A stretch of DNA of 64,000 bases from Candidatus Nomurabacteria bacterium (GCA_020632095.1 JACKGF010000002.1:16502-80501); one strand, 5' to 3'; numbered from the stretch's first letter, positions 10,961-59,721 are shown. Program-made: numbers and translations. Notes: generated by a model from the letters alone, not told the origin.

Positions 10961-10968
10961 AAATTATA

Positions 10969-16179: not shown

Positions 16180-17185
16180 TGTATGGTCCCTCCAGCTACC
16201 CCTCAAGTAGGACAGATTGCTCATAATAATACTCACTCGAAATCCTAAAATCAATACACTCTTTCGGTCGGTCATTCAAGAAGGTATGAATCTCATTCAA
16301 TTCTTCTTGAGTAACAGACGCAATGTCTCTCCGCTTTGGAACAAAGCATCTAATCCAACGATTAGTATTCTCTACCAGTCCCTTCTCCCAAGAATGATAA
16401 GGGTGGCAGAAATAGATTGGAGCCTGTATGATTTGTTCTAGTTCCGTCCAGTGACGGAATGCAATGTCGTTGTCGGTGGTGATACTCTTGACTATAATAT
16501 TGCTAAACATTTTAGAGAACGCTGCACTGATTGTGTGGCGTTTTCTATTGGGTAACTGACGTACCAAGCTGTATTTAGTTAAACGGTCAGTAGCCACTAG
16601 AAGTACGTATGGACTGTACTTAGAGACAATGAAGTCTAGTTCATAGTGACCTAGCTCATGGCTACCAAGAGGACGAATATCTATATATTTACGGCCATCA
16701 TCAGCTGGTTTATGTGTGGTCCGTTTCGGACCACTTTTCTTTTTGTTCCAACGCCAGAATAGTCGATATTCCAGACCACGACTTTCTATGAACTTGTATA
16801 TAGCTTTGGCGGAACAGGTAACACCGAGCTCTCGTTTGAGATGTCCACTGATTTGTTTAGGGGTCCACTTCTTCTCCAATTTGTCTTCTACGAAACGAAT
16901 CAGGAAACTATCTAGAGCCACCTTGAGACACTGTCGTTTAGCGCGCCAACGACGTTGACTTACTTTTAGTTGGGCTTGCTTGGCGTCATAGACTCCATTA
17001 ACCCTATTCTTCTTTAGTTCCTGACTGATGGTGTTGGGACTACGTTTGAGGAAGATGGCTATTTCTCTGATCAAACTCCCTGCGTTCAATAACTTTTCAA
17101 TTACGAAACGCTCCTCAAATTGTATGTGTCTGTATGTTTTCATAGACAGCGAATTTACTTTATAGCTGTCCTACTTCAAAGGTGT
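16180..17185 (-). mobile_element. IS30-family insertion sequence
   Basis: Contains an IS30 transposase. The ends carry inverted AAGTAGGACAG (16186-16200 region versus 17165-17179). Confidence 0.6.
16196..17143 (-). CDS. IS30-family transposase
   Basis: N-terminal HTH and a DDE core with an IS30-like signature (TTDNDIAF, HPYHSWEKGLVENTNRWIR). Confidence 0.9.
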   Translation of the reverse strand: MKTYRHIQFEERFVIEKLLNAGSLIREIAIFLKRSPNTISQELKKNRVNGVYDAKQAQLKVSQRRWRAKRQCLKVALDSFLIRFVEDKLEKKWTPKQISGHLKRELGVTCSAKAIYKFIESRGLEYRLFWRWNKKKSGPKRTTHKPADDGRKYIDIRPLGSHELGHYELDFIVSKYSPYVLLVATDRLTKYSLVRQLPNRKRHTISAAFSKMFSNIIVKSITTDNDIAFRHWTELEQIIQAPIYFCHPYHSWEKGLVENTNRWIRCFVPKRRDIASVTQEELNEIHTFLNDRPKECIDFRISSEYYYEQSVLLEG

Positions 17186-20254: not shown

Positions 20255-20992
20255 TTATTTACCTAAACAGTTTGCAAGCATTACTCTCAATTGAAAAATA
20301 GTATCCGACTTTAATTTAACCCGTAATGAATCTTTTTGGGCATCATTTAACAATTCACCCAAACCATCAAGAATATGTTTGTTATCCATTTTCTCAAGTA
20401 ACTTTATACATTGAACCAAGGTCTCTTCGAATGACATCCCAGATCGAGCCTTAACAATCTCTTGGTTAATAGGCCAGTTATTCTTGGCAAAAAAATTGAC
20501 ATCGAAAATATCACGACTCGTTTTTCCAACTCGCTCATACATAGCCATCAATTTATGGGCAAACATGTCTTCCCGAATCATTACCAACATAGATATTCCC
20601 AACAGTGTCTTCACATCATAGCGAGACCCGAATTGCCGGCGATTGACTTCGATTTTAATATTCTGTGACTGGGGATGATAAGAAATAATATTTAATAAGG
20701 TATATTTTTTTTGGTAAGAATTTTTAATCTCCCCATATTCCTTAACAATTAAATTTATTTTTTCAAACACTTCAGCCTCCTTTGTCTCATCCAACAAATC
20801 GAGATCAATATCTACAGAGTGTCGAGGTAAGCCATAAAACATCATAGCAGCTGTTCCACCTTTGAAGCCCAAATATGGAGAAATGGATGTGTCAGTATAA
20901 ATATCCTTTAAGATCTGCAGTATTGTACTTTTATGCTGGGGATAATCGAATTTCATATAGCTATATTTCATTATAGTCTGCAAAATATTCAT
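20255..20992 (-). CDS. abiEii: AbiEii/AbiGii nucleotidyltransferase toxin (DUF1814)
   Basis: Signature LGFKGGTAAMMFYGLPRHSVDIDLD. The annotated ORF extends to 21040, but the start at Met17 avoids overlap with abiEi. Confidence 0.8.
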   Translation of the reverse strand: MNILQTIMKYSYMKFDYPQHKSTILQILKDIYTDTSISPYLGFKGGTAAMMFYGLPRHSVDIDLDLLDETKEAEVFEKINLIVKEYGEIKNSYQKKYTLLNIISYHPQSQNIKIEVNRRQFGSRYDVKTLLGISMLVMIREDMFAHKLMAMYERVGKTSRDIFDVNFFAKNNWPINQEIVKARSGMSFEETLVQCIKLLEKMDNKHILDGLGELLNDAQKDSLRVKLKSDTIFQLRVMLANCLGK

Positions 20993-21554
20993 CCACCTTT
21001 TCTTGTAAGCGCTTATTTTTATATATTGGCAATATCTCAAAAACCTTTTTCCAATTCAAGTTAGCTAAATTATCAAAATGATAATCTTTACTAACATAAA
21101 GTCGGTCTAAAAATGCCCGCTCTTGAGTTGCAATTGAAAAATTATTTATGTGCTCAACACCAGCACTATTACTTAAAATATCGTCTTTTACTCTAACAAA
21201 CTGAATCATTTGATTTCCAGCTTTAACTTCTCGCTTAATATAAGATGCAACAAAAATGTTTCCATAAAACTGGAAGTTTACACCTTCTCTAGTCAAGACT
21301 GTCTCAAAACTTACATATGAAGGAGTGTAAATCCTAGTAGCTAATTCTAAGCTATTGTAGTCATGATCTTTAGCATAAAATCCTCTATGAACGCGGATTA
21401 ACTTTCCAGATTTAACATATGACTTTAAACGATCGCTCACTACTGTTTTGTTACCCTCCCTCCACAACAAAGCAACATCTTTAGTTGAAAAGATGGTTTT
21501 TGAAGATCTTAATAAAACTTCTAAATATTCTCCTTTTACAGGTTTTTTATCCAT
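20961..21554 (-). CDS. abiEi: AbiEi antitoxin/transcriptional regulator
   Basis: Lies immediately upstream of abiEii on the same strand. AbiEi_4-like N-terminal wHTH (LLWREGNKTVVSDRLKSYVKSGKLIRVHRGFY). Confidence 0.75.
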   Translation of the reverse strand: MDKKPVKGEYLEVLLRSSKTIFSTKDVALLWREGNKTVVSDRLKSYVKSGKLIRVHRGFYAKDHDYNSLELATRIYTPSYVSFETVLTREGVNFQFYGNIFVASYIKREVKAGNQMIQFVRVKDDILSNSAGVEHINNFSIATQERAFLDRLYVSKDYHFDNLANLNWKKVFEILPIYKNKRLQEKVDEYFADYNEI

Positions 21555-32072: not shown

Positions 32073-32250
32073 CACGACAGTACAAGAGCAGACTGGTAAA
32101 TCCCTGGGTGGAAGTCGAACCAAGGTTCGCCCTGTTACAGAGGCGGTACACCTTTTGGACAGATTATTCTTTCAGTCTAATCTTCCTCAAAAGGTCTTGC
32201 AAAACGCCCCCGGCATTTTGAACCCATAGAGGACTAACAACAAAACGTAT

Positions 32251-33682
32251 GTAATAAAGAAGTAGAAATGTCCTCCCTAAAGAAATAGAAATGTCCTCCC
32301 GCAAGGGAGGACATTTCCTGTATGTTGTTGGTTCATGCACAACAACAAAAACATCATACTGACGGAAGCAGAAAAAGAAAAGGGAGAAATCATTAAAGGG
32401 TGTACTGAGGGTGATTATACAAATAGTGAAGCAGCAGAAAGACTAGGTTTGTCAGTTAGGCAGGTACGAAGACTAAAGCGTAAAGTTGAGGTGTTTGGAG
32501 TGGAAGGAATTCTGCATGGTCTCAAGGGGTCGCAGTCACACCGCAAGATAGACACAAAACAAGAAAAGAAAGTGTTAAAGTTCCTGAAAAAGAAAGACCA
32601 TCACGACTTCGGTCCAACGTTTGCGATGGAAAAGCTTGAGGAATTAGAGAACATCATTCTTGATGTTGGTACCGTTCGTCGCATCATGGTCGACGCTGAT
32701 CTCTGGAAACCCAAACAACAACGAATCAAACAATCACACAGACAGTGGCGCGAGCCAATGCTTCGCTATGGTGAGCTCATACAATACGATGGAAGCTACC
32801 ATGACTGGAACGAAGACGGTGAGGAGGAGTGCCTTCTCAAAGCCATCGACGACGCAACGAGTATTGTTACGAAAGCCGTATTTGACGATCATGAAGGTAT
32901 CGTGCCCACCTTTCGCTTCTGGTGGAAGTATATCGAGCGCCACGGGCGTCCACGGGCCATATACCTAGACAAATTCAGCACATACAAGGTCAATCATAAA
33001 AGCGCACAGGATAACATTCACTTCATGACACAGTTTGAGCGAGCCATGGAAACATTGGACATCAAGATTATCACTGCCCACTCACCAGAAGCAAAAGGTC
33101 GTGTCGAAAGGGGCTTTCGCACACATCAGGACAGGCTCGTGAAGGAACTTCGTCTGGCAAAGAAGAAGAACCAAGACGAGATGAATGACTTTCTCGAACA
33201 CACCTATCTCCCCAAGCACAACGGAACGTTTGGCAGAACTCCACGTGACCCCAGAGACGCTCATCGGCCACTGACAGACATTCTCAAAAAGAAACTCTCG
33301 TCCATATTCTCCAAACACTATCGCCGCATCGTTAAGAACGACTTCACTATTCAATGGAATGGACGATGGTTTCAGCTTCTTAACAATCAACCGACTACGG
33401 TATACAAAAAAGATGAGGTGATTATGGAAGAGTGGCTCGATAACTCCATACACATCCGTCACACACGAAACAAAGAAGTGTATCTGATATATCAAGAATT
33501 ACCGAACAAACCGAAACAGGTACGCCGACCACCGACTGTCTTGGAGCGAAAGAGTACCGCACACAAGCCGGCACCTGATCATCCATGGAGAAAGAAAAGA
33601 TAAAAAAACAAAAATTTGCTCTGACGTATTACACAACGTATTAATTAACTTGAACAGAGGACACTTCTACTTCACTGCAACA
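32251..33682 (+). mobile_element. IS copy 1 (~1432 bp, rve-type DDE transposase; ISNCY/IS1202- or IS481-like)
   Basis: 100% identical to 58235-59666. Terminal inverted repeats GAAGTAGAAATGTCCTC / GAGGACACTTCTACTTC. Flanked by a 17-bp direct repeat ctaacaacaaaacgtat. Confidence 0.85.
32335..33603 (+). CDS. DDE transposase (N-terminal HTH, rve-like core)
   Basis: HTH motif (AAERLGLSVRQVRRLKRK) and a D...D...E triad (YDGSYHDW, IYLDKFSTY, PEAKGRVERGFRT). Confidence 0.85.
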   Translation: MHNNKNIILTEAEKEKGEIIKGCTEGDYTNSEAAERLGLSVRQVRRLKRKVEVFGVEGILHGLKGSQSHRKIDTKQEKKVLKFLKKKDHHDFGPTFAMEKLEELENIILDVGTVRRIMVDADLWKPKQQRIKQSHRQWREPMLRYGELIQYDGSYHDWNEDGEEECLLKAIDDATSIVTKAVFDDHEGIVPTFRFWWKYIERHGRPRAIYLDKFSTYKVNHKSAQDNIHFMTQFERAMETLDIKIITAHSPEAKGRVERGFRTHQDRLVKELRLAKKKNQDEMNDFLEHTYLPKHNGTFGRTPRDPRDAHRPLTDILKKKLSSIFSKHYRRIVKNDFTIQWNGRWFQLLNNQPTTVYKKDEVIMEEWLDNSIHIRHTRNKEVYLIYQELPNKPKQVRRPPTVLERKSTAHKPAPDHPWRKKR

Positions 33683-33748
33683 CTAACAACAAAACGTATT
33701 GCGAAAACAACCAGAATAAGTTACACTCTCGGTCATAAATAAGTATAT

Positions 33749-34464: not shown

Positions 34465-34546
34465 GCGCGGGTGGCGAAATTGGTAGACGCGCTAGTCTTA
34501 GGAACTAGTGGAGCAATCCGTGGAGGTTCAATTCCTCTCCCGCGCA
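34465..34546 (+). tRNA. tRNA-Leu (anticodon TAG)
   Basis: Acceptor gcgcggg/cccgcgc, anticodon loop cuUAGga, long variable arm. An extended -10 promoter (TGcTATACT) sits at 34438-34446. Confidence 0.9.
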
Positions 34547-35345
34547 CTGTTCAATAAAATAGCCTTCCCGAAAGGGAGGGTTATTTTATTGGTACAGTGC
34601 GGAGGGAAGAAAAGTCTGGGGGACTTTTCGGGAGGGATTGAAAAGGTTGCCAGCACTTTCTGGAGCTTGCGAACAGAAAGAGCGACAACCTATACTGAAT
34701 TCGTAGAATTCAATTCCTCTCCCGCGCACTGTTCAATAAAATAGCCTTCCCGAAAGGGAGGGTTATTTTATTGGTACAGTGCGGAGGGAAGAAAAGTCTG
34801 GGGGACTTTTCGGGAGGGATTGAAAAGGTTGCCAGCACTTTCTGGAGCTTGCGAACAGAAAGAGCGACAACCTATACTGAATTCGTAGAATTCAATTCCT
34901 CTCCCGCGCACTGTTCAATAAAATAGCCTTCCCGAAAGGGAGGGTTATTTTATTGGTACAGTGCGGAGGGAAGAAAAGTCTGGGGGACTTTTCGGGAGGG
35001 ATTGAAAAGGTTGCCAGCACTTTCTGGAGCTTGCGAACAGAAAGAGCGACAACCTATACTGAATTCGTAGAATTCAATTCCTCTCCCGCGCACTGTTCAA
35101 TAAAATAGCCTTCCCGAAAGGGAGGGTTATTTTATTGGTACAGTGCGGAGGGAAGAAAAGTCTGGGGGACTTTTCGGGAGGGATTGAAAAGGTTGCCAGC
35201 ACTTTCTGGAGCTTGCGAACAGAAAGAGCGACAACCTATACTGAATTCGTAGAATTCAATTCCTCTCCCGCGCACTGTTCAATAAAATAGCCTTCCCGAA
35301 AGGGAGGGTTATTTTATTGAACAGTGCGGAGGGAAACAAAGTCTG
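34547..35345 (+). repeat. 182-bp tandem direct repeat array (4 identical units plus a degenerate fifth). Each unit ends with the last 21 nt of tRNA-Leu(TAG)
   Basis: Units lie at 34547-34728, 34729-34910, 34911-35092 and 35093-35274, with a partial unit from 35275 to about 35345. Each unit begins with a terminator-like hairpin aataaaatagccttccc-gaaa-gggagggttattttatt. Confidence 0.9.
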
Positions 35346-35469
35346 GGGGACTTTTCCTAATACAGAAAATTATACAGCTAGATACATTTACAAACCCTCA
35401 ACTATTTGCTTTATTAGTTATGGAGTTAACTGTTTATAACCAGTAGTACTTTCAGGGAAAGGTTTAAAA

Positions 35470-38217: not shown

Positions 38218-39270
38218 TTATTGAGTTTGCAAACGTGTTTTCTTAAAAGGCAGACGTTTGCGAATGTATTGATTGTAGTAGCGAGCCAGAGGTTTTTTGT
38301 ATTCAGCTGGAACCTTATCGACTTGCAAACAAACCCAAGAACAGTAACCTTGTTTTTTCTCAATACAACTATCGCAACCTATAAACAAAGTGTGACAGAT
38401 TTGGTTTTTGCAGTGGTAGTGAGTATCGCTTGGAGTCGACTTGCATAAGTGACACTTAGAAATTATTTCTTCACTAACCCTTTCCCCAAGCCGCTCATCG
38501 AAGACGAAGTTTTTACCTTTGAATTTGTTTTGTAAACCCTGCTCTGCTACTTGATGAGCATAGTCAATAATTCCTCCTTTAAGGTGTCTAACGTCTTTAA
38601 AACCATTATGTTTAAGCCAAGCACTAGCTTTTTCACAACGAATACCGCCGGTACAGTAAAGGGCAATTTTCTTGTTTTTATGGATCTTAAGCAGGTCTGG
38701 AGTCTTTTTTAACTCATCACGAAATGTCTCGACGTTTGGGGTAATTGCACCTTCAAAATGACCAACTTCACTCTCGTAAGCATTCCGCATATCAACTATC
38801 ACTGCTTCAGGGTCGTTTACATAATCGTTCATTTCAGCGGCAGTGAGATACTGGCCAGTGTTGGTCACATCGAATGATTCGTCATCTAAACCGTCAGCCA
38901 CAATCTTATCTTTTACCTTAACAATCAGTTTAAAAAATGACGGCATTTTACCTTCTTCCACAGCAATCTTATAAGGAATACCTATCAATTCTGGTTGCGC
39001 CTGCACCCAAGCATCAAACTGCTCCCAATTTTCCTTAGGAACGTTCATTTGAGCATTAATGCCCTCTTTAGCGACGTAAATTCGACCCATACAGTCAAAC
39101 TTATTCCATTGGTTAAGGAGTCGTTCTTGAAACTCTTTTGGGTCTGCAATCTGCACATAGCGGTAAAAAGATAGCGTCACGCGCGGTCGCCTATCAGCAG
39201 CCGCGTCACGTCGCTTCTCGGTCGCACTACGCATATCACGAACATTAGATTTTTTCATGCTAGAAATCAT
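38218..39270 (-). CDS. trhO: rhodanese-domain protein, TrhO/YceA (tRNA U34 hydroxylase) family
   Basis: Rhodanese active site LYCTGGIRCEKAS and a C-terminal Cys-rich tail. Confidence 0.75.
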   Translation of the reverse strand: MISSMKKSNVRDMRSATEKRRDAAADRRPRVTLSFYRYVQIADPKEFQERLLNQWNKFDCMGRIYVAKEGINAQMNVPKENWEQFDAWVQAQPELIGIPYKIAVEEGKMPSFFKLIVKVKDKIVADGLDDESFDVTNTGQYLTAAEMNDYVNDPEAVIVDMRNAYESEVGHFEGAITPNVETFRDELKKTPDLLKIHKNKKIALYCTGGIRCEKASAWLKHNGFKDVRHLKGGIIDYAHQVAEQGLQNKFKGKNFVFDERLGERVSEEIISKCHLCKSTPSDTHYHCKNQICHTLFIGCDSCIEKKQGYCSWVCLQVDKVPAEYKKPLARYYNQYIRKRLPFKKTRLQTQ

Positions 39271-39473
39271 ACCTTACTGGGTGGTTGCTTCGCAACCACC
39301 CTACCCCTCCCCTCCTCCCCCACCCCTAAAATACCCTTATTTTCAAACCCTAAATATAACAACCCAACATTGACTTTTAGTCCAAATTATGCTATTATAG
39401 TGGGTAGGAAGGACAATATCTTTGTCCGAAAGTTTGCGACCTTTGGTCGCTTTGACAATTGAAGGAGTAAAAA

Positions 39474-41078
39474 ATGAACAAGGTACTGATTTGGCTGGAA
39501 GCCTTTAACAAAAGGCTGTCCGCAACCTTAGGGAAAGGTGCTTCTGACGTGCTGAAAAACAGTACGGTCAGAACATTCGCGGTCATTACAACACTAGCGA
39601 TCGCCTCCGCGGCGATCATTCTGGAGGCCATAAACGGCACATTCTGGACCATCAGCCTCATCGGGTTGGTGGTAGGGGGCTACTTTTCGTTCAAGTTCAT
39701 AAAGAACAAGAAAGTGAAGCCCCTAGAAGAAACAGAACCTGAAGGAGAAAACGAAATGAGTAACGTGAAGAAATTTTTTCACATCATAAACAGCATTGCT
39801 CTCAAAGCTTGTGCTGTGCTGTGGATTATCGCTATTGTCTTAGCTGCCTTCACCATGAAATCAATAGCACCTCTGCTACTAATTCTGGTAATCGGTCCCG
39901 TCCTCTTTTGGACAATTCTATTCTCAATTAGCGTCATCGCTAGCTTTACCGGCCACCTGATTATCAGCCCGAATCGTTTTCGGCCTGATGATTACGACGC
40001 CAAAAAAATCGACGGTTCTCTGCCTTCATACAAACCTGACAATTTTGGCATCTTTACCAAAATCGAAGACGGTAGAGCGATGGTTAAAATTATCGGCCAA
40101 ACCTTCCTAACAGCGTTCATGCAAGCACCTGGACTTAGTTTCAGAGGTCATCACGAACCACTGTTAAAACGCAACGAAAAATATTGGGACGTCATCGATA
40201 CACCCCCTGGTAAAAAGGATAGTGATCCGCTTTCTGAGTACAGATGGTTTAACTGGAAGACAATCTTTTTTGGCCCATACCAAACGGCATGGCGTCTCTG
40301 GGAAGCGGCGACACACAAATGGTTAGGACTCGTCTTCGTTGGTATTTGGCCAATTGTGACTCTGCGGATTTATCCAATGGAGTACTTCGAGGAAGCAAAA
40401 ACGTCCGCAGGAGAATTTAATCTCAAAAGGAGGCTGGACTATAGCAACCACTACAGAGTATTCGACTTTCAGGTCTTCGTTCCTATGGACTCTCTCGACA
40501 CCAAAAATATGATTCCGGTGAAGATGGTCATAAGCGAGATCATGAGGGTGGTCAATGTGTACAAAATTGCATTCAGAAGTGACAACAATTGGATTTCAAG
40601 GCTGTTTGCCAGGATTCCTAGCTTCGTAAATGAAGTCACCAACAAGATTACCGTTCAGGAAATCATTGCTTCAACCGGTGAAACCCTACTAACGGAAAAG
40701 ATTCAACCCGGACTGGAAGCGCTTGCAGATGCAGACAAAGGAGGACCAATATACGCTATGGGTCTGCATTTTGCACCTAATGCACTAAGTATACCCGACC
40801 GGTCAGTCAGAAACAAAGAAGACGAACTTCGTCTCGGTGAAGTAGCGCGAGCAGAAATAGACCGTGAAGCACGCATGAGACGGGCAGATGGTGATGCTTA
40901 TGCCATCGAGAAGTCAAACCAGGCCATTGCGGCTGGTGACCCAACAATTGGATTGGAGGTGGCTCGTATCGATGGCCAAGTCCGCCAAGCAGAAGCAGCT
41001 GGCAAATCTGGAGGAACGGTAATCGTCGGTAATACTGCCGGAGTGATTGCAAACCCACAGCCAAGAAAAGGAGATTAG
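39474..41078 (+). CDS. membrane protein with an SPFH/band-7-like C-terminal domain
   Basis: Several N-terminal TM helices. The C-terminus (EVARAEIDREARMRRADGDAYAIE...TIGLEVARIDG...TVIVGN) resembles an HflK/stomatin coiled region. Confidence 0.5.
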   Translation: MNKVLIWLEAFNKRLSATLGKGASDVLKNSTVRTFAVITTLAIASAAIILEAINGTFWTISLIGLVVGGYFSFKFIKNKKVKPLEETEPEGENEMSNVKKFFHIINSIALKACAVLWIIAIVLAAFTMKSIAPLLLILVIGPVLFWTILFSISVIASFTGHLIISPNRFRPDDYDAKKIDGSLPSYKPDNFGIFTKIEDGRAMVKIIGQTFLTAFMQAPGLSFRGHHEPLLKRNEKYWDVIDTPPGKKDSDPLSEYRWFNWKTIFFGPYQTAWRLWEAATHKWLGLVFVGIWPIVTLRIYPMEYFEEAKTSAGEFNLKRRLDYSNHYRVFDFQVFVPMDSLDTKNMIPVKMVISEIMRVVNVYKIAFRSDNNWISRLFARIPSFVNEVTNKITVQEIIASTGETLLTEKIQPGLEALADADKGGPIYAMGLHFAPNALSIPDRSVRNKEDELRLGEVARAEIDREARMRRADGDAYAIEKSNQAIAAGDPTIGLEVARIDGQVRQAEAAGKSGGTVIVGNTAGVIANPQPRKGD

Positions 41079-41079
41079 T

Positions 41080-42123
41080 ATGACAGTTTTTGGAACAGAA
41101 ATTGGTCTCACAGAACTGGTGGTGGGGCTGCTCATTGCCATATTTAGCATCGTGATCATAGCAGCCATATTAATGTTCACGTATGCAACTATGCGCTCAA
41201 AAGGAGGCGCATCCAGTGGAACCACTTCGACCAAACCTTCGAAAGGGGGTTCTGGTCTGACAGTGTTCTTGCAACATCCAGCCGTAATAGCGTTGCTGTT
41301 CTCGGCCTTCGCTATTGCACTCTTCACCTATTGGGGAGATCTACGAAACACCTTCTCTTCGGTATCCAACCAGTCGGCCGGAAAAACAACCTACTGGGTA
41401 ATCGGTGTGGGGGTGCTTCTAGCCTTCGCGCTGAGTCGTAAATTCTCCTGGTTGAAGTCACCCCTGTTTTTTGGGGTGATTGTGGCCATTGGTTACTTCT
41501 GGCAAGACCTGAAGGAGCCAGTAGCAACGTGGTTGGCAACGACCACGAACAGCAACAAAGTACTGGGGGTAGCAGCAGAAGAAATCATGGACTGGATGTG
41601 GGTAATTTTCCCACTCCTAGGACTGGTATGGTTTTTCTTTCTACGGGAAAAGAAGGGGGGTAGTTCCACGGACTTCAACCTCTTCGACATCCTTGTGCTT
41701 TCGCCCATTTCTGTGTCAATAATCTGTACAATGGCAGTGGTAGTCATGATTGTCAGCAAGTGTACAGGCACCACCGAGGCAATCACGAGCACTAACACCC
41801 AAACGCCAAACCGGTGCAGGCTGATTCAGGACCTCAACCACACCGACACTGACGTTGGGATCGCCGCCAAATGCATATCTATCAACAAAGACTCACGGTA
41901 TTTTACCCAGCGTCCAGTTGAAACAGGGTACAAGCTGATGGTGGATTTCCGAAAGGAAGACAAGGAACGCAACCCGGAAATCTATACTGGCCGATACGCT
42001 AGCCAGCTTTTAGTGGCCAGTAGTACGCAAGCTGGGATGGTGCGGTTCGTCGTAAACAACGAGGAACTGAAAAGAATGGGAGTGGAAACCGTCAACATCA
42101 TCATACGGTCAATCCCCCAATAG
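41080..42123 (+). CDS. hypothetical polytopic membrane protein
   Basis: Multiple TM helices. The annotated ORF begins at 41047 but the start at MTVFGTEIG is preferred. Confidence 0.45.
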   Translation: MTVFGTEIGLTELVVGLLIAIFSIVIIAAILMFTYATMRSKGGASSGTTSTKPSKGGSGLTVFLQHPAVIALLFSAFAIALFTYWGDLRNTFSSVSNQSAGKTTYWVIGVGVLLAFALSRKFSWLKSPLFFGVIVAIGYFWQDLKEPVATWLATTTNSNKVLGVAAEEIMDWMWVIFPLLGLVWFFFLREKKGGSSTDFNLFDILVLSPISVSIICTMAVVVMIVSKCTGTTEAITSTNTQTPNRCRLIQDLNHTDTDVGIAAKCISINKDSRYFTQRPVETGYKLMVDFRKEDKERNPEIYTGRYASQLLVASSTQAGMVRFVVNNEELKRMGVETVNIIIRSIPQ

Positions 42124-42253
42124 ACCAACTCCTTCAACCGTTCTTTATTAGGTCAATTGACCACCAAGAACCCTTGCTTCGGCAGGGTTCTTTTTTTACA
42201 TCTATTTCTATGTTAGTAGCAATAACCAACTAAATTAATCCTCTAATTAAACC

Positions 42254-42589
42254 TTAAGGAATAGTGAAAGCAGTAGCACAAGCTGGGCTAAAGTTTGGAT
42301 CTCTAGCACACTCAAGTTGCAAATCAAGCGCAAATGTTGCTACAAAGATAGATAGTATCGCATAAGCAGAAATCATGATAACTAAACCGATAATCCCAAA
42401 AGTAATATGCTTAACACCTTCCTGACGAGCAGTTTCATTGGTGGCATTCATGAAATATTGAGCACAACCATATAAAAAAATCAAAAAAGCAACTGCGCTA
42501 AGAAGAGCTATTAAAGGAAAGATGATGATATCATTCAACTTTTCGACAAACTTAGCTGCTTCTGCTACAGCCATTTGTTGTGGTGACAT
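42254..42589 (-). CDS. small pilin-like two-helix protein (paralog family)
   Basis: Hydrophobic helix-YGCAQYF-ETARQEGVK-hydrophobic helix. Same architecture as the other five paralogs. Confidence 0.5.
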   Translation of the reverse strand: MSPQQMAVAEAAKFVEKLNDIIIFPLIALLSAVAFLIFLYGCAQYFMNATNETARQEGVKHITFGIIGLVIMISAYAILSIFVATFALDLQLECARDPNFSPACATAFTIP

Positions 42590-42696
42590 ATGAAAATATT
42601 ATCACAAATACTAATTCTCCCTCGATAAGTTATCCCACGATTTTAGGCACCAAAAAAAGCCGCGTAAGCGGCTTTTTTGTAATTCTGTAACCGAAA

Positions 42697-43101
42697 TTAA
42701 GGAATTAGATTAGTCTTAGGCACGATAGTTGGATCAATAACCTCACCACTTAGACCAAAGAAAGTTGAGACAAGGTTGATGATTCCCCAGAAGACAATAA
42801 TCAAAACAAAGCCGAGAATTGAGTAAATCATCAAACTCTTTCCTGCTTCTTTCTTTTCGTCGTTGGCGCCACCAGCAATAAAGTACTGGAACATTCCCCA
42901 AACAAATACCAAGAAACCAATACCGATAATAAATGGAATGACTGTTCCATTAACAAAGGTCAGGATGTTAGTCAGATAAGTTTTCATCACATTGTTTGCT
43001 GGATCAAAACCACTACCAGCGGTTCCTCCACCTTGAGCTGATACCAAAGCTGGCAAAACCAACAAAACTGAACTTCCTATAAAATAACCAATTTTTTTCA
43101 T
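42697..43101 (-). CDS. secreted pilin-like two-helix protein (VirB2/TrbC-type; CPR 'T4SS pilin'-like family)
   Basis: Signal peptide, then GMFQYFIAGGANDEKKEAGKSL between two TM helices. Confidence 0.55.
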   Translation of the reverse strand: MKKIGYFIGSSVLLVLPALVSAQGGGTAGSGFDPANNVMKTYLTNILTFVNGTVIPFIIGIGFLVFVWGMFQYFIAGGANDEKKEAGKSLMIYSILGFVLIIVFWGIINLVSTFFGLSGEVIDPTIVPKTNLIP

Positions 43102-43270
43102 ACGTATTTTTTTATAAAATTAATAACGTTATAACGTTCCCTTAATTATAGACTACTAACTTAGTCCAACAATGTAACTTATTCACTTAGTGTGTAAAAC
43201 TATATTTTTACGTATATGGATAAGTTTCCCTATTATACACTAAATTCATGTTTTGTAAAGGGGTAAGACC

Positions 43271-43531
43271 TTACCGTAAGAAAGTTTGCTGGATCATTAT
43301 CACAATCCCCCAGGCGCTGATCATTAATACAAAAACAATTACTGCTGCAGTAGCGTATTTTTTACCCTCTTCACGTTTTGTCTCTTCACCAGCATTTATC
43401 ACCCAAGAATCAAACATTTTCCAGATTAGATAAAGAAACAAAACTCCAAATAAAGCTGGAATTAAGATATCAATAAAATCTATAATGTAATTCACTAAAT
43501 CTGCAAAGGTTGTTGGTGTTGTTGGTGTCAT
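43271..43531 (-). CDS. small pilin-like two-helix protein (paralog)
   Basis: Helix-WKMFDSWVINAGEETKREEGKK-helix. Confidence 0.45.
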   Translation of the reverse strand: MTPTTPTTFADLVNYIIDFIDILIPALFGVLFLYLIWKMFDSWVINAGEETKREEGKKYATAAVIVFVLMISAWGIVIMIQQTFLR

Positions 43532-43539
43532 AAGTTAAT

Positions 43540-43905
43540 CTAAGGCGCTGCAAAAGCTGTTACTAAATTAGAGATTATTTTCGAAATAGCTACTGCTCCG
43601 ATAATTAGAACCCCACCGATAATAGCGTAAGTGAGCGCTTGTGAAGCTTCTTGTATCTGGGCTGGATTCCCTCTTGCCACCACATACTTGAATCCAGAAT
43701 AGATAATAAAGAAAACTACAATTGGAATAGCAATGACAATTATTACATTCAATATAGCCACCAAAAAGTCTTCAATACTATTGAACGCTAGTGGGTTTTT
43801 GAAAGAGTAACTAATTTGAGCATTTGCTAACTGCGGAAAAACCAACAAAGTAAACACGACCATATTTAAAGCGACCGTGTGTAAATTATTAAATATTTTT
43901 TTCAT
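43540..43905 (-). CDS. secreted pilin-like two-helix protein (paralog)
   Basis: Signal peptide, then SGFKYVVARGNPAQIQEASQAL between two TM helices. Closest to the N-domains of the 9905/10969 proteins. Confidence 0.55.
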   Translation of the reverse strand: MKKIFNNLHTVALNMVVFTLLVFPQLANAQISYSFKNPLAFNSIEDFLVAILNVIIVIAIPIVVFFIIYSGFKYVVARGNPAQIQEASQALTYAIIGGVLIIGAVAISKIISNLVTAFAAP

Positions 43906-43924
43906 GATTAAAATTTATTATGTG

Positions 43925-45241
43925 CTAATACTTCTCTGTTAACCTACCAGACACATCCGTCACAGCCGATGACAAGTCTCGACGATTTTCATTAATATCT
44001 TTGGTCATAGTTGTAAATATTTGGTTAGTAGCTTCTAAATCTGGGTTCAACCAACCAAAAGTATACACGGCTGACTGATAGGTTTTTCTCCCAAAAATGT
44101 CATTGCTACCTTGAGTGACATAATTTCTAAACACCGGAACCATATTATTGTATATTGCTATCTGATTTGCCACCTCAACACTACCAAGCTTTTTTAACAC
44201 TTCAGTTGCACCGGCTATATTATCGGTAGATTTTAGCATTGAGAGCGCATAAAATCGCCCATATGTTCTACGAGTCGCTCCGGTATCGTTCTGCGGTATT
44301 TCTGCAATGTCAAAGCTCAAATTAGGGTTTATTTTTTCAATCTGCCTGCCTTCGCTACCATAACCAAAATACAATGCTAAATCTTCAGAGGTGAACCTAG
44401 CTCTATCTTCTGTAAAAGACCGATTCCATGAATATAAAGTGTTATTAGGTTTACTGAACCGAGTAAAGAAATCTGCTGCAGTACTGAGCGGGTCACCACT
44501 TGCTCCTAAAGACAGTTGTAGTTGAACTGAATAGAAACCTTTACTATCTTCAAACACTAGCTTTGAGCCGTTTTGCATCATTAAAGCTGAAATGACTCCA
44601 AAAGCGTTTCTAACGTTACTGTATTCACCCATCGCAACCACACTTTTTCTGACAGTACGGTCTGAATCACGCTGAATCAAAGTTGGGAAATATGTGTTTA
44701 CTAAGGATTCCCAAGTACGCGGTGGCTCTAAATATCCCACATCTGAAAGAGTGTTTTTATTCCAATACATCATTAGGGGGTCAACAGCGATTGGGTAACC
44801 ATACATTCCATCTGATAGAGCAAATATTTTTGTTCCATCAAGATAAAATTCATTAATATTATTTCTTGGAAAGACAAATTCTGCAGAACCAAAGTAAGGA
44901 ATAGGCTGAATGCGTCTACGCATTTCTACAAGTTTTTCATGAGATAAAAGCACTAAATCTGGACCTGTCTTGTCTGCCAAAGCATTTACAAAAACGTTAT
45001 CAAACTCTTCAGGACTAAAATACTTATACGTTACGATACGATACGATTCGTCTTGCTCAGACAATAAGCGTATAGCGTCATTCACACCATCAGCTGGCAT
45101 TGTTCCCCAGATTGTCACCGGAGCGTTGATAGTCGCTGGTTCACCTCCACCACCTTTAAATAAAGCCAACAAAGACAAGGCACCAATAAATAAAGCGATA
45201 AAAATTATAACTAAGGATAGTTCAAAGGGTCGGAGTTTCAT
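43925..45241 (-). CDS. membrane-anchored extracellular solute-binding-protein-like protein
   Basis: N-terminal TM anchor followed by a ~400-aa periplasmic-type domain (PVTIWGTMPADGVNDAIRLL...) resembling an ABC SBP family 1. Confidence 0.45.
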   Translation of the reverse strand: MKLRPFELSLVIIFIALFIGALSLLALFKGGGGEPATINAPVTIWGTMPADGVNDAIRLLSEQDESYRIVTYKYFSPEEFDNVFVNALADKTGPDLVLLSHEKLVEMRRRIQPIPYFGSAEFVFPRNNINEFYLDGTKIFALSDGMYGYPIAVDPLMMYWNKNTLSDVGYLEPPRTWESLVNTYFPTLIQRDSDRTVRKSVVAMGEYSNVRNAFGVISALMMQNGSKLVFEDSKGFYSVQLQLSLGASGDPLSTAADFFTRFSKPNNTLYSWNRSFTEDRARFTSEDLALYFGYGSEGRQIEKINPNLSFDIAEIPQNDTGATRRTYGRFYALSMLKSTDNIAGATEVLKKLGSVEVANQIAIYNNMVPVFRNYVTQGSNDIFGRKTYQSAVYTFGWLNPDLEATNQIFTTMTKDINENRRDLSSAVTDVSGRLTEKY

Positions 45242-45243
45242 AT

Positions 45244-45792
45244 TTAAGCTTTACGAAAGGCTAACCCGTAATGATGATCACCAGCCGGGTACTCGCGCTC
45301 GAAGACGAAGCCGTTTGATTCAAACAAAGCTGTCACTTCAGAAGAAGACATGACGTGACCAGGCTGAGGACCCATACCAGCAAAGGATTCGGTCCAATCA
45401 ACAACAAAGAAATTACCCCCAGATCTTAAGGTTCTGGACATTTCTTTAATTGAAGCCTCTTTATCTTCGATTAAAAATAAAGTATTGACTAGTACTGCCA
45501 CATCAAGTTCGCCAGTACTTATCTTGATTCCTTCCGGCTCTTCGAGATCACACCAAATAGGGTAAATATTATGCAGGCCTTGAGCACGGGACTGTTCACC
45601 TAATTTTTCTACTAGCGCTTTTTGGATTTCACAGACATAAACTCTACCCGACTCACCGACAGCATTAGATAGTGTTTTCATAAAAAAGCCACTACCAGCA
45701 CCGAAATCGGCCACGGTGTCGCCTTCCTTAATGTGAAAATGCGAAGCTACCACTTCCGGTATAACAAACCGCCCGCCAATTGGTGTATTCAT
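45244..45792 (-). CDS. class I SAM-dependent methyltransferase
   Basis: Motif I VADFGAGSGFF and motif post-I/II. Confidence 0.8.
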   Translation of the reverse strand: MNTPIGGRFVIPEVVASHFHIKEGDTVADFGAGSGFFMKTLSNAVGESGRVYVCEIQKALVEKLGEQSRAQGLHNIYPIWCDLEEPEGIKISTGELDVAVLVNTLFLIEDKEASIKEMSRTLRSGGNFFVVDWTESFAGMGPQPGHVMSSSEVTALFESNGFVFEREYPAGDHHYGLAFRKA

Positions 45793-45838
45793 ATGTAAGT
45801 ATTATACATGGTTGAGAGAGAGATTTTGGTAGGGATGT

Positions 45839-45879
45839 GAAAAGTGGGGTGGCTTCCTCCGGAAGCCACCCCACTTTTC
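45839..45879. terminator. perfect 17-bp-stem hairpin
   Basis: aaagtggggtggcttcc-tccg-gaagccaccccacttt. Confidence 0.6.
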
Positions 45880-45888
45880 TTCTACACT

Positions 45889-46322
45889 TTACGTCCAGGA
45901 ATTTGCCCTAGGGAAATATCTGGGACCATTGGTATAGCTGGTTCATTTACAGCTCGCTACCAGCATATTCTCCCTCGGTAGGTCTGAGCTATGCATACAG
46001 AGATACATTCCTTTCAGTCATTATTTTCCAACAATCTGCTTTTCAGTCTTTACTCGTTTACGTCCAGGAATTTGCCCTAGGGAAATATCTGGGACCATTG
46101 GTATAGCTGGTTCATTTACAGCTCGCTACCAGCATATTCTCCCTCGGTAGGTCTGAGCTATGCATACAGAGATACATTCCTTTCAGTCATTATTTTCCAA
46201 CAATCTGCTTTTCAGTCTTTACTCGTTTACGTCCAGGAATTTGCCCTAGGGAAATATCTGGGACCATTGGTATAGCTGGTTCATTTACAGCTCGCTACCA
46301 GCATATTCTCCCTCGGTAGGTC
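45889..46322. repeat. 169-bp tandem direct repeat, 2.6 copies, non-coding
   Basis: Copies start at 45889, 46058 and 46227 and are identical. The third copy is truncated. 169 is not a multiple of 3 and no ORF is present. Confidence 0.9.
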
Positions 46323-46379
46323 GAATCTGCTGAAGCGCCTGTATAAATTCGCAATAGTCGCCGACGGCTCCTTTGCTCA

Positions 46380-48848
46380 TTAAACAAATACAACACTAGC
46401 GATCTCGTCACCAGCGCGCATCTTCATCACTCGCACTCCTTGAGTTTGACGACCGAGGGTTGGGACATCCTTAAGTGGCAACTTAATCACTTGACCCTTC
46501 TTGCTCATAATCACCAACTCTCCTTCCATACGCTCTTCCCCAGTTACAATCAAACCACGAACGATTTTTCCAGTCTTACTAGTTACTTTAGCTGTCTTAA
46601 TACCAGAACCACCACGCTTTTGGGTCTTATACTCCTTAGCTGGAGTCGATTTACCATAACCAAGCTCAGTCACAATCAACACCTCCCTATCTTTATCGCC
46701 TGATTTTAGAACCTCAGCCGACACAATAATGTCACCCTTAACCAACTTCATACCAGTTACTCCGGCCGCTGTTCGCCCCATTTGTCTAATATCAGTCTCC
46801 TTAAATCGGATTGCCTGACCTTTTTGCGTAATTAGAGACACCTCATCACCCTTACCAACAAACTGCGCTGCTATGAGTGAGTCACCTTCTCGCAAAGTAA
46901 TCGCAATCAAACCACTACGACGCACATCTTTAAATGAAGCTGCGTCACTCTTCTTAGCCACACCATCTTTAGTAACCATCATAAGTGACCAATCACCAGC
47001 CCAATCTTCTTTCCGAACAGCCAGCACAGAAGTTATCTTTTCTTCAGAACTTAACGACAGGAAGTTCATAATAGACTTACCTTTAGTGGCTCGTCTTCCT
47101 TCTGGAATCTCATACATCTTGCATTGGAAAACTTTTCCACCATCAGTGAAGAATAGTAGGTCACTGTGAGCTGACGTGGTAAGTAAAGTGGTTACCATAT
47201 CCTCCTCCTTGGTATTTAGGTCGACCACCCCTACTCCTCCACGTTTTTGGGTTTTGTATTCAGTTGGGTTTGTACGTTTTACGTAGCCACCCTTGGTAAG
47301 TACCAGCACACTTTCGTCATCTGGAATCAGGTCCTCTTGACTCATTTGTTTAACCCCTCCCTTAACAATCTTGGTCCGACGATCGTCACCAAACTTATCA
47401 GCCACTTCTTGTAATTCAGTTTTAACGATATTCATCATTTTAGCCTTACTTTTCAGAATAGCTTCTAGTTCTTTAATCAGTTTCTGAATCATTGCTAACT
47501 CATCTTCAATCTTCTTGCGTTCCAAGCCAGCCAACTTCTGCAACCGCATATCAAGAATCGCTTGAGCCTGAATATCTGAGAATTTAAACTCTTTCATTAA
47601 AGCCGCGTGAGCCGTCGGTACATCCTTTGAAGCACGAATTAGCTTGATAATTTTGTCGATATGATCAAGCGCTTTCTTTAGACCAAGCAAAATATGTTCG
47701 CGGTCTTTAGCCTTCCCTAAATCATACTCGGTCCGACGACGAATCACTTCTGCTCGGTGCTTGATATATTCCTGCAAAATACCCTTCAAAGATAAAGTTT
47801 GTGGAATACCGTTCACCAAAGCTACCATGTTGTAGTGGAAAGTATCTTCTAGTTGGGTGTGCTTGTAGAGTTTATTTAAAACTGTTTGTGGCTGAGCACC
47901 AACCTTCAACTCAATTACTACTCGAATATCAGAAGTTGACTCATCCCGCATTTCTCGGATACCTTCAATCTTTTTTTCTCGGACCAAATTAGCAATCTTT
48001 TCTTGCATGTCAGCCTTATTGACTCGGAACGGAATTGAAGTAATCACAATTGAGAAAGCTCCCCGTTTATCTTCAACGATTTCCGCCTCACCGCGCACCA
48101 CAACACCACCCCGTCCATTTGCATAGGCTTGAGCTATAGCTTTCTTATCAAAGGCAATTCCGCCAACTGGAAAGTCTGGACCCTGAACATGCTTAAGCAG
48201 GTCATCAGTTGATGCTTCCGGATCATCAATCAAATGATTAGTGGCCGCTACCACCTCACGCAGGTTGTGTGGGGGAATATTAGTTGCCATTCCAACGGCA
48301 ATACCAAGTGAACCTAGTAAAAGCAAATTAGGAGCAGCTGCTGGTAATACCGTTGGTTCCTTCTTAGTACCATCAAAGTTTGGTCGCCAGTCAACCGTGT
48401 CTTTCTCTAAATCACGAAGCATTTCCTCGGAAATTTTGGACATCTTAGCCTCAGTGTAACGATAAGCCGCCGCACTATCGCCGTCGATGGAACCGAAGTT
48501 ACCCTGCCCTAAAACCAGTGGATAACGTGTGGAAAAACCCTGTGCCAACTTAACCATTGCCTCATACACAGCCGAGTCTCCATGAGGGTGAAAACTACCA
48601 AGAACGTCTCCTACTACAGTCGCCGATTTCTTGAACTTTGCTGTAGAGGTCAATCCGTTTAGACGCATTGAGTATAAAATACGACGGTGAACCGGTTTTA
48701 AACCATCTCGCACATCAGGCAAAGCCCGTTGCGTAATAACAGACATCGCATAATCGAGATACGCTGTCTCCATTTCGCCTGCAATACTTTGCATTACGAT
48801 TCCTTTTCTTGGGTCGATTGATTCCTGGGCTGGTGACTTTTTCGGCAT
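46380..48848 (-). CDS. gyrA: DNA gyrase subunit A
   Basis: Active-site Tyr region (AAMRYTE), QRDR motif, and C-terminal beta-pinwheel repeats. Confidence 0.95.
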
Positions 48849-58229: not shown

Positions 58230-58234
58230 AAGCT

Positions 58235-59666
58235 GTAATAAAGAAGTAGAAATGTCCTCCCTAAAGAAATAGAAATGTCCTCCCGCAAGGGAGGACATTT
58301 CCTGTATGTTGTTGGTTCATGCACAACAACAAAAACATCATACTGACGGAAGCAGAAAAAGAAAAGGGAGAAATCATTAAAGGGTGTACTGAGGGTGATT
58401 ATACAAATAGTGAAGCAGCAGAAAGACTAGGTTTGTCAGTTAGGCAGGTACGAAGACTAAAGCGTAAAGTTGAGGTGTTTGGAGTGGAAGGAATTCTGCA
58501 TGGTCTCAAGGGGTCGCAGTCACACCGCAAGATAGACACAAAACAAGAAAAGAAAGTGTTAAAGTTCCTGAAAAAGAAAGACCATCACGACTTCGGTCCA
58601 ACGTTTGCGATGGAAAAGCTTGAGGAATTAGAGAACATCATTCTTGATGTTGGTACCGTTCGTCGCATCATGGTCGACGCTGATCTCTGGAAACCCAAAC
58701 AACAACGAATCAAACAATCACACAGACAGTGGCGCGAGCCAATGCTTCGCTATGGTGAGCTCATACAATACGATGGAAGCTACCATGACTGGAACGAAGA
58801 CGGTGAGGAGGAGTGCCTTCTCAAAGCCATCGACGACGCAACGAGTATTGTTACGAAAGCCGTATTTGACGATCATGAAGGTATCGTGCCCACCTTTCGC
58901 TTCTGGTGGAAGTATATCGAGCGCCACGGGCGTCCACGGGCCATATACCTAGACAAATTCAGCACATACAAGGTCAATCATAAAAGCGCACAGGATAACA
59001 TTCACTTCATGACACAGTTTGAGCGAGCCATGGAAACATTGGACATCAAGATTATCACTGCCCACTCACCAGAAGCAAAAGGTCGTGTCGAAAGGGGCTT
59101 TCGCACACATCAGGACAGGCTCGTGAAGGAACTTCGTCTGGCAAAGAAGAAGAACCAAGACGAGATGAATGACTTTCTCGAACACACCTATCTCCCCAAG
59201 CACAACGGAACGTTTGGCAGAACTCCACGTGACCCCAGAGACGCTCATCGGCCACTGACAGACATTCTCAAAAAGAAACTCTCGTCCATATTCTCCAAAC
59301 ACTATCGCCGCATCGTTAAGAACGACTTCACTATTCAATGGAATGGACGATGGTTTCAGCTTCTTAACAATCAACCGACTACGGTATACAAAAAAGATGA
59401 GGTGATTATGGAAGAGTGGCTCGATAACTCCATACACATCCGTCACACACGAAACAAAGAAGTGTATCTGATATATCAAGAATTACCGAACAAACCGAAA
59501 CAGGTACGCCGACCACCGACTGTCTTGGAGCGAAAGAGTACCGCACACAAGCCGGCACCTGATCATCCATGGAGAAAGAAAAGATAAAAAAACAAAAATT
59601 TGCTCTGACGTATTACACAACGTATTAATTAACTTGAACAGAGGACACTTCTACTTCACTGCAACA
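58235..59666 (+). mobile_element. IS copy 2 (identical to copy 1)
   Basis: Same terminal inverted repeats. The 17-bp direct repeat acaccagtctaaaagct occurs at 58218-58234 and 59666-59682. The insertion point coincides with the stop codon of the upstream HisRS-like gene. Confidence 0.85.
58319..59587 (+). CDS. DDE transposase (identical to 32335-33603)
   Basis: 422 aa, identical to the copy-1 transposase. Confidence 0.85.
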   Translation: MHNNKNIILTEAEKEKGEIIKGCTEGDYTNSEAAERLGLSVRQVRRLKRKVEVFGVEGILHGLKGSQSHRKIDTKQEKKVLKFLKKKDHHDFGPTFAMEKLEELENIILDVGTVRRIMVDADLWKPKQQRIKQSHRQWREPMLRYGELIQYDGSYHDWNEDGEEECLLKAIDDATSIVTKAVFDDHEGIVPTFRFWWKYIERHGRPRAIYLDKFSTYKVNHKSAQDNIHFMTQFERAMETLDIKIITAHSPEAKGRVERGFRTHQDRLVKELRLAKKKNQDEMNDFLEHTYLPKHNGTFGRTPRDPRDAHRPLTDILKKKLSSIFSKHYRRIVKNDFTIQWNGRWFQLLNNQPTTVYKKDEVIMEEWLDNSIHIRHTRNKEVYLIYQELPNKPKQVRRPPTVLERKSTAHKPAPDHPWRKKR

Positions 59667-59721
59667 CACCAGTCTAAAAGCTTGCACCATTTCGCACTAA
59701 ATGATATGCTCTTGCCCACAT

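Follow-up and report, generated by a model that had tools for sequence, protein, structure and literature searches.

Tandem arrays of genes for VirB2-like pilins are a known feature of the Patescibacteria: 1,948 assemblies encode such pilins, and a catalogue of the arrays lists 441, each of 2-11 genes, at a mean identity of ∼25% (Quinonero-Coronel et al. 2025, PMC12102498). Just 1,135 assemblies have pilins close to virB4, and a role in host adaptation or variation has been proposed for the pilins (PMC12102498). The essential type IV secretion system (T4SS) cluster of Southlakia epibionticum carries six pilins of Pfam family PF18895 (SEML1_0014-0019) beside virB4, prgI, and virB6 (Wang et al. 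2023, PMC10633639), and PF18895 pilins are among the highly expressed, function-unassigned genes in enrichment cultures of Patescibacteria, Paceibacteria among them (Kuroda et al. 2024, PMC10936435). Reviews describe the role of the essential Patescibacteria T4SS and its pilin arrays as “completely unknown” and raise, as a speculation, a conduit through which material is taken up from the host. Here we describe a chromosomal array of this family in a 64,000-nucleotide stretch, called the window below, of a metagenome-assembled genome of Candidatus Nomurabacteria (Paceibacteria, Patescibacteria; GCA_020632095.1, JACKGF010000002.1:16502-80501). Its four pilin genes belong to four distinct and individually conserved types that keep one order across relatives, and they follow genes for a methyltransferase and a solute-binding protein (SBP).

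The tandem VirB2-like array as such is therefore already known in Patescibacteria, and an earlier note made from this sequence, which held the combination not to be a described system, was right in part: PF18895 arrays of 2-11 genes are published (PMC12102498, PMC10633639, PMC12857230), but neither the linkage to methyltransferase and SBP genes nor the fixed A-B-C-D orthology is mentioned in these three papers, in PMC10936435, or in the full-text literature matches. The fixed four-type set packed against SBP and methyltransferase genes appears to be undescribed. Like the catalogued arrays and that of Southlakia, the window array consists of tandem genes for small two-helix proteins of the same Pfam family, lies on the chromosome of a genome-reduced monoderm, and has paralog identities of ∼25-38%. 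Unlike the Southlakia array it does not adjoin virB4, prgI, and virB6, and it stands in a likely operon with genes for a methyltransferase and an anchored MalE-like protein that are absent from the Southlakia cluster. In this Paceibacteria clade it is a fixed A-B-C-D set of orthogroups, which these papers do not describe. The remainder of the window is ordinary chromosome (topA, relA/spoT, parB, miaA, clpB, infB, gyrA, rpsA, pth, hisS, ftsA, and ftsZ). All of the window pilins are labeled “hypothetical protein” in GenBank, and verbatim copies of the proteins are present in metagenome-assembled genomes of Candidatus Nomurabacteria/Kaiserbacteria (GCA_020428725.1 and an assembly with H6784 locus tags).

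Four pilin types in a fixed order

The four pilin genes are consecutive on the minus strand and are named A to D in the direction of transcription. Type A (43540-43905, 121 aa) scores 31.4 bits against PF18895 and 30.3 bits against PF04956 (TrbC/VirB2), where the Pfam gathering scores are 26.6 and 27.9 bits, respectively. Types B (43271-43531, 86 aa, 28.2 bits) and C (42697-43101, 134 aa, 35.3 bits) also exceed the PF18895 cutoff in the Pfam scan; type D (42254-42589, 111 aa) lies below it at 23.6 bits, and its orthologues at two of the related loci described below (L005 and L007) are recorded as PF18895. The pilins have weak NCBIfam matches to the pilin-like conjugal transfer family NF045849. 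Together with two proteins encoded elsewhere in the window (9905 and 10969, see below), there are six PF18895 family members in 64 kb, and their per-protein E-values of 5e-5 to 6e-12 are far beyond chance. The earlier note had counted these same six members and had grouped the four small minus-strand open reading frames (ORFs) at 42254-43905 with the N-terminal domains of the 9905 and 10969 proteins as pilin-like paralogs. All of them match PF18895, and this assignment is borne out both by the hidden Markov model (HMM) searches with PF18895 and TrbC and by co-conservation of the array in relatives. Four consecutive genes of low paralog identity constitute a Patescibacterial VirB2 pilin array as defined by Quinonero-Coronel et al. 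(2025), that is, at least two pilin genes in tandem or one non-pilin gene apart.

All four proteins follow a single plan, which is evident in the individual sequences and in the consensus of each type: a small protein with two hydrophobic helices and a short polar or charged loop between them. Leader peptides were judged by eye. Type A has a putative Sec-type signal peptide (MKK...LANA/Q) and an ARGN loop between its two hydrophobic helices, and type C has a putative signal peptide (MKK...LVSA/Q), a Gly-rich N-terminus, and a GGANDEKKE loop between its helices; both leaders show typical n-h-c regions. Types B and D start directly with the hairpin and have no apparent signal peptide. The loop of type B is E/K-rich, and in type D the two helices are followed by a C-terminal tail that is conserved and contains a pair of Cys residues (ECARDPNFSPAC). 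These proteins resemble VirB2 (the Agrobacterium T-pilin), TrbC (RP4), and TraA (F) in that type A passes the TrbC/VirB2 model and in that types A and C have the succession of signal peptide, helix 1, charged loop, and helix 2. Those systems, however, are diderm and have one major pilin, whereas the window array belongs to a monoderm and comprises four types, two of which appear leaderless. No gene for a cyclase or acetylase (TraF/TraX) or for VirB3 or VirB4 was identified adjoining the array.

Relatives were collected by scanning an SBP alignment against one genome per species, which gave 80 loci with SBP identities from 61% down to 32% in organisms labeled Nomura-, Kaiser-, Taylor-, and Paceibacteria and Parcubacteria, and the gene content of these loci was read with custom HMMs run over six-frame ORFs. 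The comparative synteny check suggested by the earlier note gives a clear outcome, as the cluster is co-conserved and is retained in 80/80 genome loci, including those with SBP identity as low as 32%. In the direction of the pilin genes, every locus with enough flank has the order metallo-beta-lactamase (MBL)-fold gene, small ORF (o162), gyrA, methyltransferase, SBP, two to seven pilins, ∼2-3.5 kb with two minus-strand membrane genes, and the rhodanese gene trhO.

The pilins themselves were compared as a set of 353 sequences from 78 loci by a BLAST graph with weighted community detection, which was used instead of single-linkage clustering because the latter merged the types. It gave exactly four groups, each with one window pilin. 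The type A orthogroup is at position 1 in 78/78 loci; type B, found in 77 loci, takes the second or third position; type C, the most often duplicated type, is present in 69 loci, mostly in the penultimate position, and is duplicated in 29; and type D is last in 67/67 loci and has zero duplicates. The best BLAST matches of the window pilins give a similar picture, with A first in 71/77 loci and D last in 74/77. The commonest gene orders are ABCD (33 loci), ABCCD (13), and AABCCD (8), the others are similar, and a permuted order was never seen. Identity is 45-52% within a type, and it is 27-38% or undetectable by BLAST between the window paralogs; each type also has conserved motifs of its own in its consensus. 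As judged from these comparisons, the array is a set of four ancient, non-redundant orthogroups and not one of fast-varying copies. Conservation of the types together with the unpermuted order fits purifying selection on four distinct roles and does not fit diversifying turnover.

A likely methyltransferase–SBP–pilin gene unit

Spacing within the cluster is strongly uneven. In the window the methyltransferase stop codon lies 2 nt before the SBP start; in most relatives the two genes overlap by 4 nt, which is also the median (−4 nt, 74 measured). The median gaps across species are 6 nt between SBP and A and 9 nt between A and B, and they are 100 nt between B and C (a 170-bp spacer in the window) and 88 nt between C and D. 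The likely transcription units are therefore methyltransferase-SBP-A-B, C alone, and D alone. The arrangement had been called operon-like, which holds for the common strand and for the packed or overlapping methyltransferase, SBP, A, and B genes; three units look likelier than a single operon.

Promoter- and terminator-like sites in the window, all of them consensus matches, agree with this spacing pattern. Upstream of the methyltransferase, an extended −10-like box, TGTATAAT (45801-45808, minus strand), was read from the sequence and ends 8 nt before the ATG. It is a putative promoter of the methyltransferase-SBP-A-B unit, whose mRNA would then be near-leaderless; as it has no −35 box, it was not among the sites reported by the consensus scanner. 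Farther upstream (45838-45878, minus strand), a perfect 14-bp-stem hairpin followed by a T-run (GTGGGGTGGCTTCC-GGA-GGAAGCCACCCCAC-TTTT), also read from the sequence, is likely a terminator that insulates the unit from gyrA and from an upstream tandem repeat. The spacer before pilin C contains a sigma-70-like promoter (TTTACA, 16 nt, TATAAT; 11/12 matches; 43232-43259, minus strand). Since the region is not enriched for such sites (15 found, 15.9 expected), this candidate promoter is a lead and not proof. A terminator-like hairpin (AAAAAAGCCGCTTACGCGGCTTTTTTT) was read between pilins C and D (42652-42678, minus strand), and a hairpin with flanking A- and T-runs, assigned to no strand, lies between pilin D and the convergent membrane protein gene (42172-42195), where it likely acts as a bidirectional terminator. 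An Rfam search of 39000-46500 gave only sub-threshold chance matches.

Several other features were noted in these spacers. The pilin D gene has a TGTGATAAT box immediately before its ATG that, like the TGTATAAT box, may give leaderless or near-leaderless transcripts. The spacer between gyrA and the methyltransferase gene contains a perfect tandem repeat (45888-46322; 169-bp period, 2.6 copies, 100% identity) that has no Rfam match; in another assembly of the same organism (L001) this spacer is ∼170 bp shorter and has no detectable tandem array, through copy-number variation or assembly collapse. The 11-mer CGAGGGAGAAT has four exact copies on the minus strand (42614-42624, 45967-45977, 46136-46146, and 46305-46315), one in each 169-bp repeat unit and one that precedes the start codon of pilin D by ∼25 nt. 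When one mismatch is allowed there are six matches, with 0.96 expected, and six were reached in 1 of 100 shuffles; the 11-mer may be a regulatory site common to these places, or its recurrence may be coincidental. A second perfect, long-period tandem repeat (34527-35372; 182-bp period, ∼4.6 copies, the first three 100% identical) is intergenic as well. Its unit holds a long palindrome (…CGCACTGTnCAATAAAATAnCC…GGnTATTTTATTGnACAGTGCG…) and resembles the 169-bp repeat in no more than a loose purine-rich motif.

The first gene of the unit (45244-45792, minus strand) encodes a 182-aa class I S-adenosylmethionine (SAM)-dependent methyltransferase with no evident transmembrane segment. It passes the cutoffs of three Pfam models, Methyltransf_31 (44.3 bits), Methyltransf_25 (41.8 bits), and Methyltransf_11 (40.2 bits); there is no NCBIfam equivalog, and no specific family or substrate class can be assigned. 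The nearest solved structure, 3DH0 (E 8e-18), was itself deposited merely as a “SAM dependent methyltransferase”. The gene lies directly upstream of the SBP gene in nearly all loci that reach that far (HMM matches in 86/90).

The SBP (43925-45241, minus strand, 438 aa) is a MalE-like (family 1) protein by its AlphaFold2 model, by Foldseek, and by its family profile. The model, made from a 120-sequence alignment, has a pLDDT of 92.4 and a pTM of 0.88 (a poor earlier model from 20 sequences, with a pLDDT of 52.9, was discarded), and its top Foldseek matches in the PDB are the Thermotoga maritima maltotriose-binding protein and MalE (E 1e-20, TM-score 0.64-0.76, ∼15% identity). The family profile matches a trehalose/maltose-binding protein at 1e-6 and also MalE. 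The window SBP itself has no Pfam SBP match at E≤1; many homologues with 54-64% identity carry precomputed PF13416 or PF01547 (SBP_bac_1/8) matches. Mean column identity is 67% over 120 homologues, conservation of the SBP equals or exceeds that of the pilins, and its N-terminal sequence MKLRPFE is nearly invariant. The presence of an SBP-like protein and a SAM methyltransferase on the strand of the pilins, as first noticed from the sequence, is thus confirmed. The SBP had also been called a lipoprotein, and this does not hold: the family consensus has no Cys or lipobox in the N-terminal region, and residues 5-27 form a helix that is a predicted membrane anchor, so that the protein would be anchored by a transmembrane segment. 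The MKLRPFE sequence had raised the idea of a class III (type IV prepilin-like) signal, which was set aside since position −1 lacks Gly and position +5 lacks Glu.

In comparison with MalE and the maltodextrin-binding proteins, the window SBP has the two-lobe class II fold and many invariant aromatic residues of the kind expected in sugar-binding sites. It differs in its low identity, in having a transmembrane anchor with the MKLRPFE tail in place of a signal peptide or lipobox, and in its coupling to pilin genes with no permease or ATPase nearby; no ABC permease or ATPase (BPD_transp, ABC_tran) was found among the scanned window ORFs or in the flanks of the relatives. Binding proteins are tied to pilus-like assembly or conjugation in other systems. 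The “bindosome” of Sulfolobus contains sugar-binding proteins with pilin-like signal peptides that are assembled by the Bas system, and PrgZ and TraC are SBPs of enterococcal conjugative plasmids, of which PrgZ binds peptides and is of the OppA type, not the MalE type. These are analogies only and imply no homology, and the class III signal (G/F...E) is absent here.

Neighboring membrane genes and other features of the window

Two membrane protein genes are convergent to the pilin genes. The first (39474-41078, plus strand) encodes a 534-aa divergent member of the SPFH/stomatin family, whose SPFH domain (residues ∼190-460) stands between ∼4 N-terminal transmembrane segments and a charged tail that is coiled-coil-like. 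By itself the window protein scores 17.8 bits against Band_7 (PF01145), under the cutoff of 23.6 bits, and its SPFH/band-7 identity, proposed at the outset, holds at the level of the family profile: a profile of 22 members matches PH stomatin (4.5e-11) and QmcA (1.8e-9), as well as stomatin and HflK in the PDB, and Band_7 was found in 16/22 detected homologues. It was found in 12/32 proteins of alignment A6, which comprises the window protein and 31 further positional homologues. A match of the N-terminus to DUF3487/TIGR03750 (conjugal transfer; E 0.03-0.05) occurred in only 1/22 family members and was taken as transmembrane-segment noise.

The second gene (41080-42123, plus strand, 347 aa when read from the ATG at 41080) begins 2 nt past the stop codon of the SPFH gene; the longest form of its ORF starts at a TTG at 41047. 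It encodes a polytopic protein with ∼6 transmembrane segments and a C-terminal domain of ∼110 aa, and it has no Pfam or PDB match. An exhaustive search found six matches among 1.84 billion representatives, jackhmmer gave four relatives among the loci, and a word-based homologue search gave only a shorter form of the protein itself; it is a fast-evolving orphan. Stomatin, QmcA, and HflK, with operon partners such as those in the QmcA-YbbJ and PH1511-PH1510 NfeD pairs, are like the window pair in their family matches and in the membrane protein partner that follows immediately. They are unlike it in that the window partner is an orphan without NfeD signature and the window SPFH protein has ∼4 N-terminal transmembrane segments; an NfeD-like partner was rejected at the sequence level, as neither NfeD (PF01957) nor any shared family was found in 43 positional homologues.

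The two genes had been placed just upstream of the pilins on the opposite strand. They do adjoin the pilins on the opposite strand, but they lie downstream of and convergent to them. A polytopic gene on the minus strand of the locus occupies the corresponding position in nearly all relatives, and in two loci (L066 and L082) the SPFH/polytopic pair lies inside the array, between pilin B and pilins C/D. Both membrane genes are present almost everywhere and evolve fast, and transmembrane segments shift between them (4 + 6 in the window, 0 + 8 in L005:10318-12794), an apparent exchange that hints at physical association of the two proteins. They would make up a membrane-scaffold pair separate from the pilins and linked to them only by position.

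The two other PF18895 proteins of the window, 9905 and 10969, are encoded by adjacent minus-strand genes (9905-11997) and score 25.6 and 45.9 bits, respectively, the former just under and the latter above the cutoff. Each has a putative signal peptide with typical n-h-c regions (judged by eye), a CxxxxCxxC-type Cys-rich motif, the PF18895 hairpin, and then an extracellular domain. The domain of 10969 is an SLT lytic transglycosylase, which suggests a VirB1-like activity that the pilin domain would anchor; that of 9905 is Cys-rich, ∼240 aa long, and without a PDB or Pfam match.

Mobile or defense insertions in the otherwise housekeeping window include an AbiEii/AbiEi toxin-antitoxin pair (20255-21554), a Fic-domain protein (12392-13549), and an IS30-like integrase (16196-17143). 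Two 100%-identical copies of an element (32250-33700 and 58234-59700), ∼26 kb apart in direct orientation, each encode a 422-aa helix-turn-helix (transposase-like) protein and are probably insertion sequences. In three large or closed relatives the cluster lies less than 50 kb from the start of the sequence record (L005, 1-18 kb of 1.0 Mb; L007, 6-27 kb of 0.65 Mb; L033, 32-49 kb of 0.99 Mb). If these records begin at dnaA, the array is origin-proximal there, as has been reported for Paceibacteria T4SS genes.

Interpretation of the array

The reading that we favor, with moderate confidence, is that the block is a chromosomal VirB2/TrbC-like (PF18895) array whose products form a heteromeric filament or channel by means of a T4SS encoded elsewhere, and that an anchored MalE-like receptor is co-expressed with them. 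The pilins would enter the cytoplasmic membrane as two-helix hairpins, A and C by way of cleavable Sec signal peptides and B and D without them, and the subunits would then be drawn from this membrane pool into a surface filament or the lining of a channel. The machine would be the monoderm-type VirB4 T4SS, which most Patescibacteria encode elsewhere on the chromosome. Because the four orthogroups are individually conserved and stand in a fixed order, the structure is most likely a heteromer in which every type has its own defined role, and the types would not be interchangeable antigenic variants. A and B would be co-transcribed, and probably translationally coupled, with the transmembrane-anchored MalE-like protein and the small methyltransferase; the binding protein would most likely be a surface receptor for a host-derived, carbohydrate-like ligand, working with the filament or expressed along with it. 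Family membership, fold, gene order, orthology, and spacing are shown directly by the sequence and model data; polymerization, dependence on a T4SS, and the roles of the SBP and the methyltransferase are inferred.

Several observations weigh against this reading. An apparatus encoded at this locus, as the earlier note suggested, is not seen: no secretion ATPase lies in the window or its immediate flanks (a faint T2SSE match of ClpB reflects generic AAA+ similarity). VirB4, VirB3/PrgI, VirB6, and VirD4 are absent from the scanned ORFs of the 64-kb window and from the flanking ∼7 kb on the left and ∼3 kb on the right, and no T4SS machinery gene lies within 10 kb of the cluster in the relatives, so that the link between these pilins and a secretion machine is one that we infer. 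Type D falls under the Pfam threshold, and B and D have no signal peptide. The Southlakia array is without SBP or methyltransferase (PMC10633639). A PF18895 pilus has never been observed in any organism, a 2025 review speaking of an “intriguing possibility” (PMC12857230), and a surface-filament function is presumptive for Patescibacteria as a whole. Finally, the locus is collinear from the MBL-fold gene through gyrA to trhO in all relatives, so that adjacency of the methyltransferase and SBP genes alone is no proof of shared function; it makes a functional role of these two proteins suggestive only, and the sole feature in favor of one is the very tight, conserved spacing.

This collinearity also supports an account in which the pilins serve a distant T4SS, the SBP is an ordinary orphan that feeds an ABC importer whose genes lie elsewhere, the methyltransferase has a housekeeping function, and their adjacency reflects a compact genome and a chromosomal region that is collinear across the clade. 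The entire MBL-fold-to-trhO stretch is kept in all loci, so linkage within it is unspecific, and such an account agrees with a Southlakia array that does without both proteins, with an SBP fold that is that of the canonical transport protein MalE, and with a generic methyltransferase. However, ∼75 species preserve the methyltransferase/SBP overlap of 4 nt and the single-digit distances from SBP to A and from A to B, which are about a tenth of those from B to C and from C to D; the unit is set apart from gyrA by the hairpin and the −10-like box that precede the methyltransferase gene; no ABC permease or ATPase is encoded in the window; and the SBP is conserved as much as the pilins or more. We consider this account doubtful, with a real chance nonetheless of being right. 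The lack of nearby T4SS genes would also suit a membrane-resident, T4SS-independent uptake or sensing complex, made of the four two-helix proteins (eight helices) and the SBP and forming no filament. A fixed, stoichiometric-looking set of four small membrane proteins, translationally coupled to a binding protein and in two cases without the signal peptides that resident membrane proteins would not need, is what such a complex predicts. Yet the sequence family is that of the VirB2/TrbC pilins, Southlakia carries the same family inside an essential T4SS cluster, such a transporter has no known precedent, and no energizing component was identified, all of which makes this proposal quite unlikely.

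The view published for patescibacterial arrays (PMC12102498), and suggested as well for the VirB2 paralogs of Bartonella and Anaplasma, would make the four pilins interchangeable major pilins of a variation or host-range device. Low identity between the paralogs agrees with it, as does lineage-specific duplication of A and C in some relatives. But each type remains 45-52% identical among species in which SBP identity to the query is just 32-61%, no locus has a permuted order, and complete arrays neither lack D nor carry a second copy of it, so that this view seems very unlikely to apply to the present locus.

The favored heteromeric structure could be extended to a ligand-gated or ligand-capturing VirB2-type filament, in which the MalE-like receptor binds host glycans or maltodextrin-like compounds and works directly with the four-component pilus or conduit, as an uptake or sensing route that replaces an ABC permease; the methyltransferase would then modify the cytoplasm-facing E/K-rich loops of the pilins or the MKLRPFE tail. 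This extension is speculative and quite unlikely to be correct. Were it true, it would give ultra-reduced episymbionts a route of nutrient uptake or host sensing without a classical ABC permease; were the coupling mere collinearity, the finding would shrink to an ordinary case of a known array. A fixed and ordered array of four types argues for a heteromeric structure with specialized subunits and against the published idea of variation or host range, and the four defined pilin types are targets for structural modeling or depletion. The tight, clade-wide coupling of A and B to an anchored MalE-like receptor and a methyltransferase would, in addition, provide a concrete and testable lead on what is sensed or carried by the filament.

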